A stretch of 58,000 nucleotides of DNA. Origin: an uncultured Burkholderiaceae bacterium (GTDB lineage: Bacteria; Pseudomonadota; Gammaproteobacteria; Burkholderiales; Burkholderiaceae_F). The stretch is taken from the NCBI GenBank assembly GCA_964554145.1, contig CAZKNV010000001.1, forward strand, positions 1 through 58,000, given 5' to 3'. Below the pieces are notes generated by a model. That model searched no databases. It was not told the DNA's origin and saw only the letters and a program-made list of their open reading frames with translations. The position numbers and the translations under genes were made by a program. Below are positions 14,664 through 33,616 of this stretch, piece by piece (position 1 is the stretch's first letter; each line of letters opens with the position of its first letter).

Positions 14664-14693
14664 TTGACTCGCGAGCACTTACTTCCTTATTGT
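14664..14693 (+). promoter_or_regulatory. candidate sigma-70-type promoter for the riboswitch/nrd operon
   Basis: TTGACT (14664-14669), 18-nt spacer, TATTGT (14688-14693), just upstream of the riboswitch. Confidence 0.3.
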
Positions 14694-14704
14694 AGCGATA
14701 AGTC

Positions 14705-14895
14705 ATAAGGTTCTCCGGGTTTTCACGATCCGGAGCGAAGAGGGAATCCGGTGCGTCGCGTCGCGACAAAGCCGGGGCTGCCCCCGCAACTGTAAACGGC
14801 GAGCCGTCTGTCGATCAGGGTCACTGATGGGGTAACCCATTGGGAAGGCCAGACAGATTAGGACGACGACCCGCGAGCCAGGAGACCTGCCTTTG
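14705..14895 (+). promoter_or_regulatory. Cobalamin (B12) riboswitch
   Basis: Contains the conserved core AGGGAATCCGGTG...AAGCCGGGGCTGCCCCCGCAACTGTAA, then GGTCACTG...GGGAAGGCC, and the B12 box GAGCCAGGAGACCTGCC (14874-14891). It lies upstream of nrdA. Confidence 0.9.
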
Positions 14896-15023
14896 ACCGA
14901 GAAAGCTGTCATCGGGCGGGGTGTCCTGGTGGGTCGCTGGCCAATCGTGCGACGGCATTCCGCCGTTCCGTTTGATGGCACGCATCCATCCACCCCGACC
15001 TTCACTTCCGACGGGGTCCGCGA

Positions 15024-25249: not shown

Positions 25250-25813
25250 CTAGGTTGGAACCTCGGATCTCAGGAAAGGAGTGCCGACTCCGGTTAACAG
25301 AATCTCAGCGAATCTGTTCGCCTCATCCTCCTCGACATCGCACCATGCCTTGAGCTCACATGCTCGTATGTCCCGCAGTCGAACGCGAATCAGGTGATTT
25401 CGATGCAATACAAAATGGGCGAGCTCGTGCGCCGCGAACCTTAATCTTTCGGATCGCGAGTGATTTTTGTTAATGCGGATCGCCCACGAACCGCTGAAGT
25501 GCATTAGCCAACCAGATGAGCCGAGGGGCACACAGCGAAGATATATTTCGAGTCGCTTGCAGATCAGCTTTATAACCGTCCAGGTAAGCGGATTGCAAAG
25601 TTCGGGAAACGACTTGACCAAGGCCAGAGCAATTCGGAGCAGCTGTTCGTCGCTTCGGCGCTTTGGGCGCGGACCCAACATGACTGGTTGCCCAGTCGAG
25701 ATGGCTCTAGCAACTGCCTTGCGTTGCCGAGACCTCTGCGGTGCCTCGCCTGTTGCAGGTGGTCGAGACCTTGTGCGCCTAGCCATTGTTCGACGTGCTT
25801 GCCATCGCGGCAT
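25250..25813 (-). CDS. ImmA/IrrE-family (DUF955-like) zinc metallopeptidase
   Basis: HExxH motif in [12 protein letters not shown], followed by [13 protein letters not shown]. It is AT-richer than its neighbours, and its ORF start overlaps the bioB stop. Confidence 0.7.
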
Positions 25814-26864
25814 AACCCACCGGCGCCATAGGATCGATCAGCCTTAGCTCTACAAGCGGATCGCCTTTCAGCTCAGTTCCATCAGGCGCCTCTAATACGA
25901 ATCCCGCATCGCGAATCATTTCCAGATCCGCTCGTGCGCTTTGCCCCGCTGTAGTTAGATAGTCCCCGATGAAAAGAGAGTTGGCTGGATAAAGGCCGAG
26001 TGGCTGCAGTGATCGCAGATGAACTTCGCGTCCTCCGGCGATGCGGATCTTCTGCGACGGCAGGATAAAGCGGAACAGGCAAAGGATTCGCAGGCACTTC
26101 GTCGGCGTGAGCTTGTTCAAGCCAGCCAGCGGAGTCCCTACTATAGGTACGAGAAAGTTTACAGGTACGCTCTCGACCTTCAGCTCACGTAAGGAGATGG
26201 CAAGATCGATGATGTCGTCATCCGCCTCCCCCATACCGATGATTCCGCCGGAACATGCCGACAGCCCCGCGGCGTGAACGTTTCGCAGCGTTGTCTCGCG
26301 ATCGGCGAATTTATGGGTTGTGCAGATCTGGGAGTGAAAAGTCTCCGATGTATTGAGATTGTGGTTGACTGTGTTCGCGCCAGCTTCCTTCAGTCGACGG
26401 GCTTGCTCAGCGCTTAGTAGCCCAAGACACGCGCAGACGCGAAGATCATAGTTACTCTTGACTTCGGCAATCACGTCGAGCACCCGGCTGAAGACCCGTT
26501 CACCCGGCGAACGCCCGGAGATTACCAGACAAAACGTCCCTGCCTTTAGCGCTGCAGCACGCGCAGCCGCGTCGAGTATTCGGTCGTGAGCGAGCAGCGG
26601 ATACTTTTCGATATCAGCCTCCGAGATCTTTGACTGCGAGCAGTAATGGCAGTCTTCCGAACAGAGCCCGCTCTGCGCATTCAGGAGAAAGTGTAAACGC
26701 ACCCGATTTCCCCAATAACGGCGTCGGATTCGATACGCAGCCGCGAGCTGGCCAAGCAGTTCTGAATCCGGTGCGGAAAGCACTATACGCGCATCGTCGC
26801 GCGAGATTAGCTCGCCAGCCAGCGATTCATGGGCAAGTCGATTCCAGCGAAGTAAGTCGTTCAC
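25779..26864 (-). CDS. bioB: Biotin synthase
   Basis: Radical-SAM [10 protein letters not shown] motif with BioB-typical length and sequence. Confidence 0.95.
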
Positions 26865-26867
26865 GAC

Positions 26868-27596
26868 TCAAACAGCCGACGTGGATGATTGTCCATGCGA
26901 GGGCTGGTCTCCGCTGCCGAGTGCAAGCATGCCGAGCCCCGACTTTTCCGCTTCTCGGATCAGAAGAGAGAGATCCCCAGGATTAGCTACCTGTGAAAAG
27001 CGAATTATGGGCACTCTGGGCACGAGTTGCTGCAAACGTTCTTGATTGCTCTGCCGCGATAGATCTTTCGTATCATCTGCCGCAGGAACTGAGTTCAACA
27101 CGATCCCTTTGATCTCGAGCTGCTGTTCCAACGCCGCCATCACCGTCAGCAATACATGGTTGATTACTCCCAGTCTGTCAGCGGCGACAATGATGATCTC
27201 GAGGTTCCATCGCGCGAATAGCTGCGCAAAGGACACGGTCTGAGTAATCGGAACGAGAAGACCGCCAGCTCCCTCGACAATGATTCCGTTGCGGTCACGC
27301 GAGAGACGCGCGAATGCAGCATCAAGTTGGCCGAGGTCGATCGTCGAACATTGTGCGCTCGCAGCCGCGAATGGAGAGAGCGGCTCGTCAAAACTGATAG
27401 GGCAGACGTCACTTAACGAACCCGAGAAACCCGAAGCTCGGTGCAGGAGCTTCGCATCCTCGTTTCCGCCCCCGGATTCGATCGGTTTCATCGCCGCGAT
27501 ATCGACGCCGTGCGCTTTGAGCCAACCAGTTAGTCCTGCTGAAACGACAGTCTTGCCGACTGAGGTATCCGTACCAGTTATCCCGAGCCGAATCAC
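26868..27596 (-). CDS. bioD: Dethiobiotin synthetase
   Basis: N-terminal GTDTSVGKT P-loop; 242 aa; sits in the bio operon. Confidence 0.9.
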   Translation of the reverse strand: MIRLGITGTDTSVGKTVVSAGLTGWLKAHGVDIAAMKPIESGGGNEDAKLLHRASGFSGSLSDVCPISFDEPLSPFAAASAQCSTIDLGQLDAAFARLSRDRNGIIVEGAGGLLVPITQTVSFAQLFARWNLEIIIVAADRLGVINHVLLTVMAALEQQLEIKGIVLNSVPAADDTKDLSRQSNQERLQQLVPRVPIIRFSQVANPGDLSLLIREAEKSGLGMLALGSGDQPSHGQSSTSAV

Positions 27597-28861
27597 ATCG
27601 TATCCAGAAAATGGCCGATCACTTCGTAGGCGTACGATAGGTCATCGGGAAGCGTACAGTACGGAGGTAGCAGGTACACTGTCCCACCGAGGGGGCGCAG
27701 CAGGACGTCACGGCTCAATGCGTAATCCGCGAGCGCAGCACCTCGCGGATCGAGATAACCGGAAGAATCAGCGAGGTCGAAGGCACCGAGAGTTCCCAGC
27801 ACGCGAGAATTGCGAACCTTCGGATGCGAGCTGAGGCGATTCAATCTCTCCCGATGAACGGCCTCGATCGTATCGCGCCGCTGCCTGCAGGTTTCATCCA
27901 GCAGATGCAGACTGGCACGCGCCGCCGCGCACGCGATTGGATTAGCCGTGTAGGAGTGCCCATGAAAAAACATTCGCGAGCGATCGTCGCTCACAAAGCG
28001 GTCAAAGATCTCTTCGCGAACCACAGTGACGCCTAGCGGGAGAAATCCGCCCGTGAGTCCTTTCGAAAGGCAAATGATATCGGGCTCAATCTCGCCTCGC
28101 TCGCAAGCGAAGAGAGGGCCAGTGCGTCCGAAACCCGTCAGCACTTCATCAGCGATAAAAAGCGCGCCTGATGCTCGGGTACGCTCGCGCATCTCTCGAA
28201 GGATCTGCCCATCCCAGACTCGCATCCCGCCGGCGCCAAGGAGCAGAGGCTCGACGATGATCGCTGCCAGCTCCTTTCCGCGATCAGCGATTAGTTGATC
28301 AAGCGCGAGGAGAACCTTCTTCCTCGAAGGATCAGGAAGCCGCACAACCTCGAACAACTGCTGTTCGAATGGGGCAGTGAAGAGCCCACGCCCGCTCACG
28401 CTCATCGCGCCGAACGTGTCCCCGTGATACGCATTCTCGAACGCCGCGATAAGGGGGCGCTTCTCACCAGCGTTGGACCAGTACTGAATCGCGATCTTGA
28501 GGGCGACTTCAACCGCCGTCGATCCATCGTCCGAGAAAAAACAGCGTGTTAACTTCCCCGGAAGTACCGCCGACAATTCACTGGCGAGTGCCGCGGCCGG
28601 TTCGTGCGTGAAGTCGGCGAACACCACCTGTTCCAGTGTCCACGCCTGTCGACAGATAGCCCGCACGATCTCGGGCTGAGCGTGTCCATGTAACGTTACC
28701 CACCATGACGAGATCCCATCGAAGATCGCCCGGTCGTGGCGATCATACAGAAAAGCACCTCTAGCGCGCGTGACCTCGAGCGGCTGACGTCCAGAGCCGT
28801 GCTGAGTGTAAGGATGCCAGACGTGCGCTCGGTCAAGCTCGACAACGACCGGGTCAGGCAA
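27593..28861 (-). CDS. bioA: Adenosylmethionine-8-amino-7-oxononanoate aminotransferase
   Basis: Class III aminotransferase with the PLP lysine in ICLSKGLTGG and the FIADEV motif. Confidence 0.95.
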   Translation of the reverse strand: MPDPVVVELDRAHVWHPYTQHGSGRQPLEVTRARGAFLYDRHDRAIFDGISSWWVTLHGHAQPEIVRAICRQAWTLEQVVFADFTHEPAAALASELSAVLPGKLTRCFFSDDGSTAVEVALKIAIQYWSNAGEKRPLIAAFENAYHGDTFGAMSVSGRGLFTAPFEQQLFEVVRLPDPSRKKVLLALDQLIADRGKELAAIIVEPLLLGAGGMRVWDGQILREMRERTRASGALFIADEVLTGFGRTGPLFACERGEIEPDIICLSKGLTGGFLPLGVTVVREEIFDRFVSDDRSRMFFHGHSYTANPIACAAARASLHLLDETCRQRRDTIEAVHRERLNRLSSHPKVRNSRVLGTLGAFDLADSSGYLDPRGAALADYALSRDVLLRPLGGTVYLLPPYCTLPDDLSYAYEVIGHFLDTM

Positions 28862-30116
28862 CGCGAGTATTGCGGAGTATCTGAGTCAGATGGTGTGCGA
28901 GCGCATCGACCTGCTCTTCGGTGTGCGCAGCGCTCGATGTTATCCGGAGCCGAGATGTCCCCGGCGGAACGCTCGGCGGCCGCACCACACCGACGATGAA
29001 CCCGCGACTCTGGAGCTCGGCACCGATTTGCACCGCGCGCGTGGAGGAGCCGACCACCACCGGAAGGATGTGCGGTGAAGAAGAGGTCTCAAAGCAATGG
29101 TCGGGTAGCAAACTGCCCAGTGCGGATCGGAGACGCTCGGCGTTCGCTCTAAGCTTCTCTCGGCGCCAGGGTTCCTCTTGGGCAATGCGAATCGCCTCAA
29201 TTGTCGCCGCGGCCATTGCAGGTGGCGACGCAGTCGTAAAGACGAATGAGCGCGCACGATTGATCAGAAACTGAACGAGCGTCTTCGAGCCAGCAATGAA
29301 AGCTCCTGCCGTTCCGAGCGCCTTCCCAAGCGTTCCCATCACGACGTCGATCTTACCCTCGACGCCAAAAAGCTCGACGCTCCCCGTGCCATGCTCACCC
29401 AGAACGCCCGTCCCGTGCGCATCGTCGACGTATGTCCACGCGCCGCTTTCATGGGCCACTTCGACGAGCTCATCGAGCGGGAAAAGATCACCATCCATTG
29501 AGAACACGGAATCGACCACGATCATTTTGCGGCGAAAACCTGTATCCATCGCCAGCATTCGTCTAAGAGTAGCGATATCGCGATGCGGGAAGATCCGAAC
29601 TTCCGCACGGGAGAGCCGGCAGCCGTCGATCAGTGAAGCGTGATTCAGCTTGTCGGTGTAAACCGCGTCTCCTTTTTTGACGAGCGCCGGAATCGCACCA
29701 AGATTCGCCGCGTATCCGCTGGTGAAGAGCAGTGCAGCCTCAGTGTGCTTGTACGACGCGATGCTCCGTTCCAGCTCTTCGTGAACAGCGTGGTTTCCGG
29801 AAATCGACCGCGCCGCCGCGGAGCCGATGCTATCCGAATGGAGTGCGTCTGTAGCGGCGACTGCGATGCGGCCGTCGCAGGCGAGGCCTAGGTAGTCATT
29901 GGAGGCAAAGTCGACATACGAGCTCGCACCGATGTGAATGAGCGCCCCTGAGCGCCGATCGACGCGACGCAACGATCGTCGCAGCCCCTGCGTCTCAAGC
30001 GCATCGAGATGCTCCTGAAGCTTGAGGTCAAGCGAAGAGAGAGGCCGCGCGGGGCCCGGAAACGCAGTGGCGGCCGGCGGTTCCGTCATCAACCGCCGGC
30101 GTCCGGTAATCGGCAT
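28854..30116 (-). CDS. bioF: 8-amino-7-oxononanoate synthase
   Basis: Alpha-oxoamine synthase with DSVFSMDGD and GTLGKALG (PLP Lys). First gene of the bio operon. Confidence 0.9.
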   Translation of the reverse strand: MPITGRRRLMTEPPAATAFPGPARPLSSLDLKLQEHLDALETQGLRRSLRRVDRRSGALIHIGASSYVDFASNDYLGLACDGRIAVAATDALHSDSIGSAAARSISGNHAVHEELERSIASYKHTEAALLFTSGYAANLGAIPALVKKGDAVYTDKLNHASLIDGCRLSRAEVRIFPHRDIATLRRMLAMDTGFRRKMIVVDSVFSMDGDLFPLDELVEVAHESGAWTYVDDAHGTGVLGEHGTGSVELFGVEGKIDVVMGTLGKALGTAGAFIAGSKTLVQFLINRARSFVFTTASPPAMAAATIEAIRIAQEEPWRREKLRANAERLRSALGSLLPDHCFETSSSPHILPVVVGSSTRAVQIGAELQSRGFIVGVVRPPSVPPGTSRLRITSSAAHTEEQVDALAHHLTQILRNTRVA

Positions 30117-30266: not shown

Positions 30267-30608
30267 TCAGTCGTAAGGTCGATCCGGCCGTAACAAGCGC
30301 GCCCTTCGCAAATAGACGTGTCTGACCGCATTCACCGGTAACTTCGTTTCAACATGCAACAAAACACGGATGCAATGCGGAGGTGCGTCGCGAACGGGAA
30401 TCTCTACAGCGCGTAGGCACGGCACGGCGTCCCACTCCATGTCGCGTGCCGCGCGAGCCGGAAACTCACTGCGAATGTCGTGTGTGACTGTGAAAATCGC
30501 GCTCACAATCTGGGAAGAGGCGAGAGAGTTTCTCTTAGCCATCGCGACTAATAGTTCCGTCGTTGCGGATCTGACCTGATCTGACCTGATCTGCCTCATC
30601 TCGCTCAA
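30267..30608 (-). CDS. aroH: Chorismate mutase, AroH class
   Basis: 113 aa aligning to B. subtilis AroH (RSATT..., FPARAAR, CIRVLLHV, VRHVYL..A..LRPD). Confidence 0.85.
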   Translation of the reverse strand: MSEMRQIRSDQVRSATTELLVAMAKRNSLASSQIVSAIFTVTHDIRSEFPARAARDMEWDAVPCLRAVEIPVRDAPPHCIRVLLHVETKLPVNAVRHVYLRRARLLRPDRPYD

Positions 30609-30700
30609 TTGTAGTTGCTCCGCGAATTGCTAGAACGCGGGAATGCTCTGTGCTTTCCTCTGCGCCATGCTCAGGTGGTGGCTGCTCAGGCCATCGAACG

Positions 30701-31318
30701 TTAGAAGCCATTGCTGCTCATTGAGCTCTCATGGCCGCTCTTTCGTGTCACGACGCGAAATAGCGTTCGATTGTCGGGGATGTCGTCGATGTTCGCTAAT
30801 ATGATGGCCAGGCCATACCGGGCAGCAGCAGCGCGACCTGCAATGGCTGCCTGTGTCGAATTGTGCCCACTCGCGACTCGTCGAGCAGAGCCCGCTGTGT
30901 CGTAGCTCGGAACTGGTGTGAAGTTCGGGTGCTCGGAGAAGAACCGATTGCACTGCGCGATTGCCATAGGGTGACTCATAACGGTGCGAATTGACCTGAG
31001 CCTGACTCCGGGGAGTGCCAGCAGGCAATTGCGGATTGGAAAGAGGATTTCTCTCACGATTGTGAGGTCATCTGCCTCTGCTAGAGCTGCTTCGCTCTCC
31101 ACCACTATTCCAGCGATGGCGTTTCTTATGGGCAGGACGCCGAACTCCACGGCTCCGCTTCTGACCTCGCGAACGACGGTTCGGAAATCGTATCGCGGAC
31201 ACGACTCGGCCGATCCGTTCCAGATATGGGCGATCACCTCGTCACTGTACGCCCCGTAGTCGCCCTGGAAAGCGACACGTGTTGGAGTCGCTCTCATGCC
31301 GGTACGACCTCGGGCCAT
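30701..31318 (-). CDS. pheA: Prephenate dehydratase catalytic (PDT) domain only; no ACT domain
   Basis: Contains [15 protein letters not shown]...SHPMAIAQC...NRTLFRVV. The ORF stops ~20 codons after the N-TRF motif, where the ACT domain normally starts. Confidence 0.8.
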
Positions 31319-32190
31319 CGGTTCGCGCCAAGCACCCTCTCGTTTGTAACGCGAACACTTCCCAAAACGTCGCGCTCAGCCGCCAGAGCGTAGCGTCGGA
31401 TACTCTCCATCATACGCTCGAATGCCGGGATGGTGAGCGACTGAGGTCCGTCAGATTTTGCTGTCGACGGATCCGGGTGCACTTCGATGATGAGCCCATC
31501 CGCGCCCACCGCTACGGCGGCACAGGCCAGCGGTCCAATAATGTCCGCTCTTCCCGCGGCGTGACTCGGATCAACTATCACCGGAAGATGGGTCTCGGCC
31601 TTCAGCACTGGCACCGCGGAGAGATCGAGCGTGTTACGGGTAGCGGTCTCGAAAGTTCGAATGCCCCGCTCGCAGAGCACTACTCTGGAATTCCCCTGAG
31701 CCATGACGTATTCTGCTGCGAGCAGCAGGTCGTTGATGGTCGCCGAGAGGCCGCGCTTCAACAGAACGGGTTTCCCGCTTCTACCGACCTCTCCAAGTAA
31801 CGCGAAGTTCTGCATATTGCGCGCACCGATTTGGAGGACGTCGGAATAACGACTCACCAGATCTACCTGACGAGTATCCATTACTTCGGTAGCTACAGGC
31901 AGTCCCGTCTCGGCTCGAGCCTCAGCCAACATATCTAGTGCTTGCTCACCGAGTCCTTGGAACGCATACGGCGATGTCCGCGGTTTGAAAGCACCACCTC
32001 GGAGCATTGACGCTCCTGCGGCTTTCACAGCCCGGGCGGTATCGAGCAACATTGCTCTGCCTTCGACCGCGCAGGGGCCGGCGATCACAACGAGGCTGCG
32101 GCCACCGATGACGCAATCATCAGTCACGGGCACTTCAGTTGAATTCTTGATGATGTTTGCTTGGCGCGAAACAAGCTTGTAAGACTGCAT
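31294..32190 (-). CDS. aroF: 3-deoxy-7-phosphoheptulonate (DAHP) synthase, type I-beta, without N-terminal regulatory domain
   Basis: Contains [47 protein letters not shown]. Only ~30 residues precede the barrel. Confidence 0.9.
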
Positions 32191-32210
32191 CGAACGTCGG
32201 ATTAGAGGAA

Positions 32211-32240
32211 TAAAAAAGGCTCCCGGTGTTCGGGAGCCTT
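32211..32240 (-). terminator. Intrinsic terminator (attenuator) immediately upstream of aroF
   Basis: On the minus strand: AAGGCTCCCG-AACAC-CGGGAGCCTT followed by TTTTTTATT. It lies 20 nt upstream of the aroF ATG (32190). Confidence 0.7.
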
Positions 32241-32272
32241 AAGGATCATGCAGAACGAGCGTCAGCTTCTAC

Positions 32273-32359
32273 TTAATACGAACGCACGCGACCCGGCCCC
32301 CGAGGTTTGACCCCGTAAAACCAGGTAAAGTAGAAGTTGGTGGCGAGAATTCTTGGCAT
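32273..32359 (-). CDS. Aromatic-amino-acid leader peptide MPRILATNFYFTWFYGVKPRGPGRVRSY (28 aa)
   Basis: Hand translation of the minus strand gives six aromatic codons in seven positions (F Y F T W F Y), followed by antiterminator/terminator-capable sequence. Confidence 0.7.
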   Translation of the reverse strand: MPRILATNFYFTWFYGVKPRGPGRVRSY

Positions 32360-32570
32360 TGTATGCAAATTGTACAACAGGTAAGTAAACCGCGCAAGCG
32401 GTTGATGGTCGACGATTCTAGCGAGGGCCGGTCACAGTGTCTAAGACAATGAGGGGGGGTTACCCGTTTCCCCTTGTTGTAGGGGTACGAGCGACTTGAA
32501 ACGTCATATTGTTGAAGTCGCAATGGGAGACGTTGTGCGGCTTGCTTTCACTAATTACTATGATGTAGCA

Positions 32571-32669
32571 ATGAAACTCTCCAACTTTCACCACCGCACG
32601 CATCAGCACCACGGCCTCACGGGTCGCGGGCGTTTCTGCGCGTGCAAGTCAGACTACCATTTAGTATAG
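32571..32669 (+). CDS. His-rich leader peptide MKLSNFHHRTHQHHGLTGRGRFCACKSDYHLV (32 aa)
   Basis: Five His codons within codons 7-14. It lies upstream of a strong terminator and hisG. Confidence 0.6.
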   Translation: MKLSNFHHRTHQHHGLTGRGRFCACKSDYHLV

Positions 32670-32703
32670 ACCACTAGTCAGGCTACACTCACAGAACTTC
32701 CGC

Positions 32704-32737
32704 AGCCCGTCCCATTCCCGGACGGGCTTTTTGTTTT
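32704..32737 (+). terminator. Intrinsic terminator (attenuator) upstream of hisG
   Basis: AGCCCGTCC-CATTCCC-GGACGGGCT followed by TTTTGTTTT. It ends 16 nt before the hisG ATG. Confidence 0.75.
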
Positions 32738-32752
32738 CCTAACACTGGTCTC

Positions 32753-33616
32753 ATGCTCAGAATCGCACTACCAAATAAAGGACGACTCGCCGATGACGCA
32801 CGCGAGCTCTTCGGAGATGCCGGGCTTCCGGTTCGCACGCGAGGCGACCGCGCGCTATCGGCGTCACTTGGCGGAGAGTTCGAAGCGCTATTCGTTCGCG
32901 CGCAGGACATTCCTGAATTCGTTGCCGATGGCGTGGCGGATGCTGGCGTCACCGGTTGGGATCTCGTGTGCGAAGCAGCACGCCCCGTCGTGCGGCGACT
33001 CGACCTCGGCTTCGGCGAGTGCCGCCTCGTTGCCGCTGCGCGCGAGGACAGCGCCATCGCTTCACTCGATGACATCCCAGCGGGAACTCGGATAGCAACG
33101 TCGTTTCCGAATATCGCGCGCGATTTCTTTGAATCGCGGAGTCAGAAGGTCGTGCTCGTACCCATCTCAGGCGCTGCGGAGATCGCACCGCTCCTTGGCA
33201 TCGCCGAGATTATCGTCGACATCACGTCCACCGGGTCGACGCTCAAGGTGAACGGGCTTCGGGAAATTGGGACGCTGCTCACATCACGTGCGCAGCTCGT
33301 CACAAAGAGCGAACCTGGTTTCGACGCGTCCAAGGCTGACGCGATCGAATCGCTCATCATGGCGTTGGAGTCCGTCGTGCGCGCTCGCGGGACCAGGTAC
33401 CTCATGGCAAACGTTCCAAGAGGTTCGCTCGATGCGGTCAAGAAGGTCATCCCGGGCATCAATGGGCCAACTGTGATTGACATTCTAAACGGCGGTGATC
33501 GGGTCGCGGTTCACTCGGTCGTGGATGCCGTGACGGTTTACCGAACGATCACGGCTCTCAAAGCACTTGGCGCCAGCGGAATTCTCGTCACCCGCGTGGA
33601 GCGCCTGATGCCGTGA
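32753..33616 (+). CDS. hisG: ATP phosphoribosyltransferase (long form)
   Basis: 287 aa starting MLRIALPNKGRL, with a C-terminal regulatory domain present. Confidence 0.95.
   Translation: MLRIALPNKGRLADDARELFGDAGLPVRTRGDRALSASLGGEFEALFVRAQDIPEFVADGVADAGVTGWDLVCEAARPVVRRLDLGFGECRLVAAAREDSAIASLDDIPAGTRIATSFPNIARDFFESRSQKVVLVPISGAAEIAPLLGIAEIIVDITSTGSTLKVNGLREIGTLLTSRAQLVTKSEPGFDASKADAIESLIMALESVVRARGTRYLMANVPRGSLDAVKKVIPGINGPTVIDILNGGDRVAVHSVVDAVTVYRTITALKALGASGILVTRVERLMP

Follow-up and report, generated by a model that had tools for sequence, protein, structure and literature searches.

The region described here lies in a stretch of 58,000 nt (the window) of contig CAZKNV010000001.1 from an uncultured bacterium placed in the Burkholderiaceae, and it separates the DAHP synthase gene aroF on the minus strand from the divergently oriented his operon, whose first gene hisG starts with the ATG at 32753. 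This 562-nt intergenic region contains, in the direction of aroF, a predicted promoter, a short open reading frame (ORF) crowded with codons for aromatic amino acids and an intrinsic terminator, and aroF is followed on the same strand by genes for prephenate dehydratase (pheA) and an AroH-type chorismate mutase (aroH). An earlier inspection of the bare sequence, in the following called the original prediction, had proposed that leader-peptide attenuation controls these genes. Our analysis supports this proposal by codon conservation, covariation and predicted folds, and we consider it very probable that the element is a ribosome-mediated transcription attenuator with a mixed Phe/Tyr/Trp sensor.

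The leader ORF (32273..32359, minus strand) extends from the ATG at 32359 to a TAA at 32275-32273 and encodes in 28 codons the peptide MPRILATNFYFTWFYGVKPRGPGRVRSY. Codons 9-15 (32315..32335, minus strand), which we propose as stall site, read TTC TAC TTT ACC TGG TTT TAC (F Y F T W F Y), and the six Phe/Tyr/Trp codons in seven positions are located exactly where the original prediction had placed them. When the intergenic region was shuffled 5000 times with its dinucleotides preserved, this density was matched only once. The window contains, on both strands, 714 ATG-initiated ORFs of 10-60 amino acids including the leader, and the maximum among the others was three aromatic residues in seven, with aromatic residues accounting for about 6% of the codons in the genes of the window. 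The use of rare codons in the leader is unremarkable, with TTT at two of the three Phe positions and TAC at both Tyr positions of the cluster. A short 5′ ORF rich in codons for the amino acids of the pathway, as expected for an attenuator, is therefore present at this locus. A search of the NCBIfam profiles with the leader peptide, the leader peptide of the his operon and two related leaders matched no family at E ≤ 1. The absence of a Shine-Dalgarno sequence, already noted in the original prediction for the leader ATG, was confirmed, and such a sequence is likewise missing at the starts of aroF and hisG. It is very unlikely that the ORF arose by chance and that the hairpin insulates aroF from upstream transcription as a terminator of constitutive or leaky activity, since the shuffle statistics, the conservation in close and distant relatives and the detector controls described below all speak against it.

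Ten contigs encode a DAHP synthase that is 81-94% identical to that of the window, and a homologous leader is present in all of them. As L165 and L166 are the same over this region, nine distinct relatives were aligned together with the window (79% identity). Conservation of the leader ORF in relatives had been named beforehand as a decisive check, and the leader turned out to be retained in all nine, with the peptide core N-F-[Y/F]-F-[T/I]-W-[F/Y]-[Y/F/W]. The density of six aromatic codons in seven is kept in seven of the nine relatives, and of the 21 aromatic codons at which the relatives depart from the window, 10 show synonymous changes, 8 specify a different aromatic residue and only 3 have lost the aromatic character. 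The peptide flanking the cluster is poorly conserved, and three relatives even have a different frame after the cluster, with 0-2 identical residues out of 13. Retained aromatic codons in combination with a diverging rest of the peptide are the pattern expected if the codons are decoded and the peptide itself has no function.

This pattern also bears on the possibility that the upstream ORF acts on translation or via its nascent peptide, be it by a TnaC-like arrest responding to free amino acid, Rho-dependent polarity or re-initiation coupling to aroF. Such a mechanism would fit the start of aroF, which has no Shine-Dalgarno sequence and is 21 nt away from the terminator, and an influence of leader genes on re-initiation has been suggested in more general terms (PMC4833913). 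However, the unconserved peptide outside the cluster, including the frame changes, argues against a specific arrest peptide, the leader stop is 83 nt away from the ATG of aroF, and a strong intrinsic terminator is present together with a covarying antiterminator. Therefore, we assign only a small chance to an effect on translation or by the nascent peptide and favor control at the level of transcription termination.

The intrinsic terminator (32212..32240, minus strand) separates the leader ORF from aroF, the first structural gene. It consists of a 10-bp stem with a 5-nt loop, AAGGCTCCCG-AACAC-CGGGAGCCTT (32240..32216), and a run of six T residues (32217..32212), and has a folding energy of -18.5 kcal/mol. 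The terminator had been recognized before, and the distance between the T run and the ATG of the DAHP synthase gene (32190), previously given as 20 nt, was measured as 21 nt. A strict terminator scan of the 58 kb returned four hairpins, and two of these belong to this intergenic region, where each closely precedes a biosynthetic operon.

In the predicted minimum-energy fold, the leader forms a single long imperfect hairpin followed by the terminator. Its central part is a local hairpin of -19 kcal/mol between region 1, ACCUGGUUUUACGGGGU (32310..32326, minus strand), which overlaps the W-F-Y codons and represents the 5′ strand of the putative anti-antiterminator, and region 2, ACCUCGGGGGCCGGGU (32291..32306, minus strand). 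This hairpin is extended across the stop codon by pairing of the F-Y-F codons, CUUCUACUU (32336..32328), with AAGUAGAAG (32266..32274, minus strand), which overlaps the stop codon, resulting in a closed leader hairpin. Region 2 can alternatively pair via its core UCGGGGGCC (32303..32295, also given as CGGGGGCC) with the 5′ arm of the terminator. The element AGCTGACGCT (32258..32267, minus strand), located after the leader stop, is part of both alternative structures, from which we infer its role; alternatively, it might serve in pausing or in binding. It is invariant in all ten close relatives and recurs in the distant leaders L004 and L011.

Equilibrium folds of the full leader with a masked ribosome always retained the terminator, and for this reason transcripts truncated just before the 3′ arm of the terminator were modelled with the ribosome footprint masked, as a crude proxy for co-transcriptional folding at the decision point. 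With the ribosome placed on F11, W13 or Y15, the model predicts that UCGGGGGCC pairs over 9 bp with the terminator 5′ arm GGCUCCCGA. Extended by GGGUC/GAUCC and an inner helix, this antiterminator reaches a total of -30 to -33 kcal/mol, and it sequesters all but two of the 10 nucleotides of the arm. If the ribosome is placed on the stop codon instead, regions 1 and 2 pair again and the 5′ arm is nearly free, with three weak pairs left. In these models, the antiterminator thus joins the 5′ arm to the segment just after the regulatory codons and excludes the terminator, and the anti-antiterminator includes the regulatory codons themselves. Constrained folding, which had been suggested as a check, therefore yielded the alternative structures that were expected. 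The antiterminator originally drawn by hand reappears as the core of the larger structure, whereas a postulated pairing of GGTTT with AAACC does not occur in the predicted anti-antiterminator, which is the longer ACCUGGUUUUACGGGGU/ACCUCGGGGGCCGGGU hairpin.

The alignment of the close relatives gives additional evidence for these helices. For the terminator, 90% of the cells are paired, in comparison to 41-68% if the partner strand is slid, and one pair is changed on both sides. For the anti-antiterminator, the respective values are 87% and 37-44%, and four pairs are changed on both sides, among them a compensatory C-G to U-A change in the region 1:2 hairpin (alignment columns 79/115). Its covariation score of 0.190 exceeds the value of 0.164 ± 0.010 obtained in shuffles and was reached by 1 of 500 shuffles. 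Furthermore, the CUUCUACUU:AAGUAGAAG helix (helix 3) is paired in 91% and the antiterminator core in 92% of the cells.

The G+C content of the window is 61%, and its DAHP synthase sequence is closest to homologues from Gemmatimonadota, the phylum to which we assign the bacterium. The search for the same leader in front of aroF in other genomes, as recommended in the original prediction, was informative at larger distance: it revealed non-identical Phe/Tyr/Trp leaders with terminators at the same place in several phyla. In a genome collection, 11 of 12 Gemmatimonadota loci carry a short ORF with such a cluster 150-200 nt upstream of the DAHP synthase start (for example MTTHATSYLAYFTSFWGYSPGSR, MTRATAYRYYYYFATRLTGRGWSATR and MTNFWFSATYYYGFFGYNRWGPRSRVR), followed by a G+C-rich hairpin and a T run. 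An automatic detector, requiring at least four aromatic residues in eight and a terminator within 170 nt, identified 38 loci (39 with the window) among 160 DAHP synthase loci from genomes and metagenomes, and four more were found by hand. Matches beyond the Gemmatimonadota come from Acidobacteriota/Terriglobia, Geomonas, Geoanaerobacter, a Phycisphaerales genome and a Candidatus Aquilonibacter genome. The detector responded to 35 of 131 regions upstream of the DAHP synthase gene; in the controls it gave no match in 131 reverse complements and 130 downstream regions, and 5 matches in 117 regions taken from far upstream. Aromatic-rich leaders with terminators were seen in these groups before class I-beta DAHP synthase genes at the loci L005, L027, L036, L039, L051, L062, L068 and L073 and at about 25 metagenome loci, and several subfamilies of peptide and terminator can be recognized, e.g., MTRF[TS]..F.RYWF in combination with a GCCGCGAT terminator. 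Rfam gave no match to any of them.

An alignment of 16 distant Gemmatimonadota leaders with MAFFT was dropped, as an identity of 43% is too poor for column-wise covariation, and it was replaced by an alignment-free comparison of own and foreign arms, by shuffles and by the close-relative alignment described above. The best duplex between the segment after the cluster and the 5′ arm of the terminator had a mean z of -1.85 against shuffled segments over 39 loci, with p ≤ 0.05 in 18 of the 39 and z = -3.2 for the window. The arm of the own locus was paired 3.9 kcal/mol better than the arms of other loci (row and column normalised; permutation p < 1e-4), ranking first in 12 and among the top three in 21 of the 39 loci. 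In the stalled-ribosome fold of the Gemmatimonadota leaders, the 5′ arm is predicted in 16 of 16 cases to pair with a segment at approximately nt 48-93, right after the cluster. Region 2 varies in step with the terminator, as seen in the combinations CCGGGAGCC with GGCUCCCGG, CACGGGACGUG with AGCGACCCGUG and CGAGAGGGG with CCCCUCUCG.

The comparison of distant leaders is also relevant for the idea that the ORF is untranslated and that the terminator responds to a ligand or to a factor acting in trans, for instance an RNA-binding protein, uncharged tRNA in the manner of a T-box or a small molecule bound by a riboswitch. A leader without Shine-Dalgarno sequence, and a well-structured leader RNA containing the invariant AGCTGACGCT of unexplained role, would be compatible with this idea. 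Against it, an in-frame Phe/Tyr/Trp cluster after the ATG is kept across phyla while the nucleotides differ, which is expected only if the codons are read, and no Rfam family reached the threshold at this element or, as a leader family, in the 16 related loci. At the gathering thresholds, Rfam reported in the whole window only a cobalamin riboswitch elsewhere. Below the threshold, RF01859 (Phe_leader) scored 29 bits (E = 0.011; gathering threshold 55), and Thr_leader scored 19.5 bits in a permissive scan of 32100-32800; both matches cover the terminator hairpin only and were rejected. Consequently, control by such a factor or ligand appears improbable to us, and decoding of the cluster by a ribosome remains the preferred explanation.

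How the ribosome might reach the leader is suggested by the promoter. A -35 box TTGCGC (32392..32397, minus strand) is followed after 17 nt by the -10 box TACAAT (32369..32374, minus strand), which is located 9 nt before the leader ATG, as already described in the original prediction. In the ten aligned close sequences the CTTGC of the -35 box is invariant with a variable spacer, and TACA[A/G]T is present in nine, with TAGGAT in L169. The ATG is invariant, and its distance to the -10 box is 9 nt in eight of the nine close relatives and 8 nt in L169. A TTGCGC/TTGACA box with a 17-nt spacer was also found in distant Gemmatimonadota leaders. Furthermore, the promoter score over 38 leaders from several phyla peaks at a distance of 6-9 nt between the end of the -10 box and the ATG, and in 23 of the 38 leaders the best promoter within 60 nt lies at 6-11 nt from the ATG. 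This geometry predicts a 5′ untranslated region (UTR) of 0-3 nt, and a 5′ UTR shorter than 6 nt has been used as criterion for leaderless mRNAs (PMC4007540). With a conserved promoter this close to the start codon, translation of the leader probably begins on an mRNA that is nearly leaderless. The same suggestion in the original prediction gains support from the conserved boxes, their almost constant distance to the ATG and the peak at 6-9 nt in the wider set.

Taken together, the aromatic density, the conservation, the detector controls, the tests of antiterminator and anti-antiterminator, the promoter, the matching pathway genes and the leader of the neighboring his operon lead us to favor ribosome-mediated attenuation. 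We infer from them leader translation, the transcription start site, stalling and the regulatory outcome as follows. Transcription would start from TTGCGC-17-TACAAT, probably 1-3 nt before the leader ATG, and the ribosome would load on the near-leaderless mRNA. If aromatic amino acids are plentiful, the ribosome would pass codons 9-15 and proceed to the stop codon, region 1 would re-pair with region 2 behind it, the terminator (32240..32212) would form and transcription would stop about 21 nt before aroF. If Phe-, Tyr- or Trp-tRNA is scarce, the ribosome would stall at codons 9-15 and cover region 1, and the free region 2 core UCGGGGGCC could capture the 5′ arm GGCUCCCGA as soon as it is made. 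RNA polymerase would then continue past the resulting antiterminator of -30 to -33 kcal/mol into aroF-pheA(-aroH). In this way, the three aromatic aminoacyl-tRNAs would be sensed together. If ribosome-mediated attenuation operates here, changing the region 2 core from CGGGGGCC to CGCCCGCC should abolish read-through, and compensatory changes in the 5′ arm should restore it.

Several observations weigh against this interpretation. The leader lacks a Shine-Dalgarno sequence, and leaderless initiation is deduced from promoter geometry alone. A second promoter-like site, TAGACA-17-TAGAAT (32443..32415), lies 55 nt upstream of the leader ATG, would give a 5′ UTR of 49 nt and has the highest promoter score in the window. 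As this site is not conserved in the relatives, it was set aside as leader promoter and the proximal one is preferred. The full-length leader at equilibrium always folds with the terminator, and antitermination therefore depends on the co-transcriptional order, which our model approximates only crudely; the switch must be kinetic, as in classical systems. The stop codon lies about 20 nt past region 2, a position that differs from E. coli trpL, and termination in the amino-acid-replete state would therefore rely on region 1:2 re-forming behind the ribosome. Finally, the antiterminator core is conserved among close relatives but shows no two-sided covariation, although covariation counts are uninformative in either direction here because the core is invariant in these sequences.

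The genes downstream of the element match the codons of the leader. The aroF product (31294..32190, minus strand) is a class I-beta DAHP synthase (PF00793, 4e-83; NF006421, profile positions 67-335 of 338) without the N-terminal ferredoxin-like regulatory domain PF18152, which is present in most relatives and missing in a few others. The prephenate dehydratase encoded by pheA (30701..31318, minus strand) consists of the catalytic domain only (PF00800, 1.2e-48; NCBIfam positions 5-188 of 283), lacks the ACT domain and likely starts with the ATG at 31297, overlapping the aroF stop codon (ATGA). Both enzymes thus lack the modules through which allosteric feedback usually acts, and attenuation may carry most of the feedback control for this reason. 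An AroH-type chorismate mutase (CM_1, PF07736) follows at 30267..30711 (minus strand; also given as 30608..30267), and its reading frame is broken by a 10-nt tandem duplication at 30593..30574, where CAGATCAGGT occurs twice. The conserved N-terminal IRGATTIERDEADQVRS is encoded in one frame and the remainder in another, and deleting one copy restores the protein from the ATG at 30711; in close relatives CM_1 is intact (151 amino acids). The duplication may be a genuine mutation that inactivates the gene, or else an artefact of the assembly. The order aroF-pheA-aroH given in the original prediction therefore holds with respect to the gene identities (Pfam, NCBIfam), but aroH is not intact in the window.

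In the window, bioF-bioA-bioD-bioB (25779..30116, minus strand) are located downstream on the same strand and the his operon upstream. No convincing terminator was found in the window between aroH and the bio genes, so that the limits of the operon given here are provisional. The context of the leader-aroF unit varies among the loci L161-L166: in close relatives, aroB lies upstream in the opposite orientation and aroH is followed by aroA-aroK, and in L161, the closest relative (94% identity), both pheA and aroH are missing behind aroF. In the relative L011, the prephenate dehydratase is fused to CM_1.

The divergent his operon shares the intergenic region and is preceded by a candidate attenuator of its own (32559..32740, plus strand). 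Its leader ORF (32571..32669, plus strand) encodes MKLSNFHHRTHQHHGLTGRGRFCACKSDYHLV with five His residues in eight codons, and a -10-like TATGAT ends 6 nt before the ATG. A terminator with a 9-bp stem and a T run (32704..32728) ends 24 nt before the ATG of hisG. In the stalled-ribosome folds, ACGGGU after the His codons is predicted to pair with the 5′ arm of this terminator, and the fold with the ribosome at the stop codon shows the same pairing; because of this persistence, the model did not separate two states for the his leader. The cobalamin riboswitch aptamer mentioned above (RF00174, 111.8 bits) is located at 14691..14908 (plus strand).

The original prediction had assumed that a mixed leader of this type had not been described outside the classic proteobacterial pheA/trp cases, which is wrong in view of the aroR-aroF system of Corynebacterium glutamicum and a proposed upstream ORF in Acholeplasma. 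We found no paper that ties Gemmatimonadota, Acidobacteriota or Geobacter relatives to aromatic leader peptides, in a literature search whose coverage of subscription papers was incomplete. What makes the element mildly interesting is that the design is widespread and near-leaderless and has no Rfam or NCBIfam model, and that both enzymes of the window lack allosteric domains, two points that a specialist would find little surprising. As no such model matches, annotation pipelines miss the design at present. It is tempting to combine these points into the view that a large, seemingly undescribed family of near-leaderless Phe/Tyr/Trp attenuators precedes class I-beta DAHP synthase genes and that in this lineage the attenuator has become the principal point at which entry to the shikimate pathway is controlled, but for both parts jointly we would put the chances slightly below even. 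The proposed family may span Gemmatimonadota, Acidobacteriota, Geobacter relatives, Planctomycetota and Eremiobacterota. The locus predicts that Gemmatimonadota use leaderless translation for regulatory peptides, and the mixed cluster suggests that one sensor monitors the Phe, Tyr and Trp tRNA pools together where the shikimate pathway has its committed step. Gemmatimonadota are abundant in soil and, to our knowledge, their gene regulation is almost unstudied; the locus represents a concrete, testable regulatory element for this phylum.

Among the known systems, the E. coli pheL-pheA attenuator resembles the element in its leader peptide, the alternative hairpins and the intrinsic terminator governing a prephenate dehydratase gene. 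In pheL, the codon runs are for Phe only, a Shine-Dalgarno sequence is present and no DAHP synthase gene follows, whereas the leader described here is mixed for Phe, Tyr and Trp, lacks a Shine-Dalgarno sequence and precedes aroF. In C. glutamicum, the leader aroR with a Phe-Tyr-Phe motif is located before the aroF operon and ribosome stalling there raises read-through, as summarized in PMC11802643 for Neshat et al. (2014); aroR is reported to respond to Phe limitation and not to Tyr. The aroR-aroF attenuator had been predicted earlier (PMC4046766). Both systems share a short mixed-aromatic leader in front of an operon beginning with the DAHP synthase gene, but C. glutamicum belongs to the Actinomycetota, and its motif, compared by description only, is shorter and without Trp. 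The uORFC-13-1 motif before aroF in Acholeplasma, a candidate upstream ORF beside an intrinsic terminator with a ribosome-binding site and at least one Phe codon (PMC8632094), is similar in combining a Phe-coding ORF with an intrinsic terminator upstream of aroF, but differs in its occurrence in Mollicutes and its ribosome-binding site, and a mixed Phe/Tyr/Trp cluster is not described for it. In Deinococcus deserti, 14 putative attenuation leader peptides are encoded by transcripts starting at or 1 nt before the start codon (PMC4007540); a leaderless leader peptide, as proposed here, would be the common feature, with start sites mapped in D. deserti and predicted in the window.

A further mechanistic parallel concerns E. 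coli trpL and the Yanofsky model. The stop codon of trpL is located between regions 1 and 2, in contrast to the position about 20 nt after region 2 in the window, and the element presented here would sense three amino acids and is probably leaderless. Our understanding of attenuation is not changed by the element. The four-region logic with a 1:2 anti-antiterminator, a 2:3 antiterminator and a 3:4 terminator is the same in both cases, and the proposed mechanism is a classical one of the textbook kind, which is extended here to new lineages.

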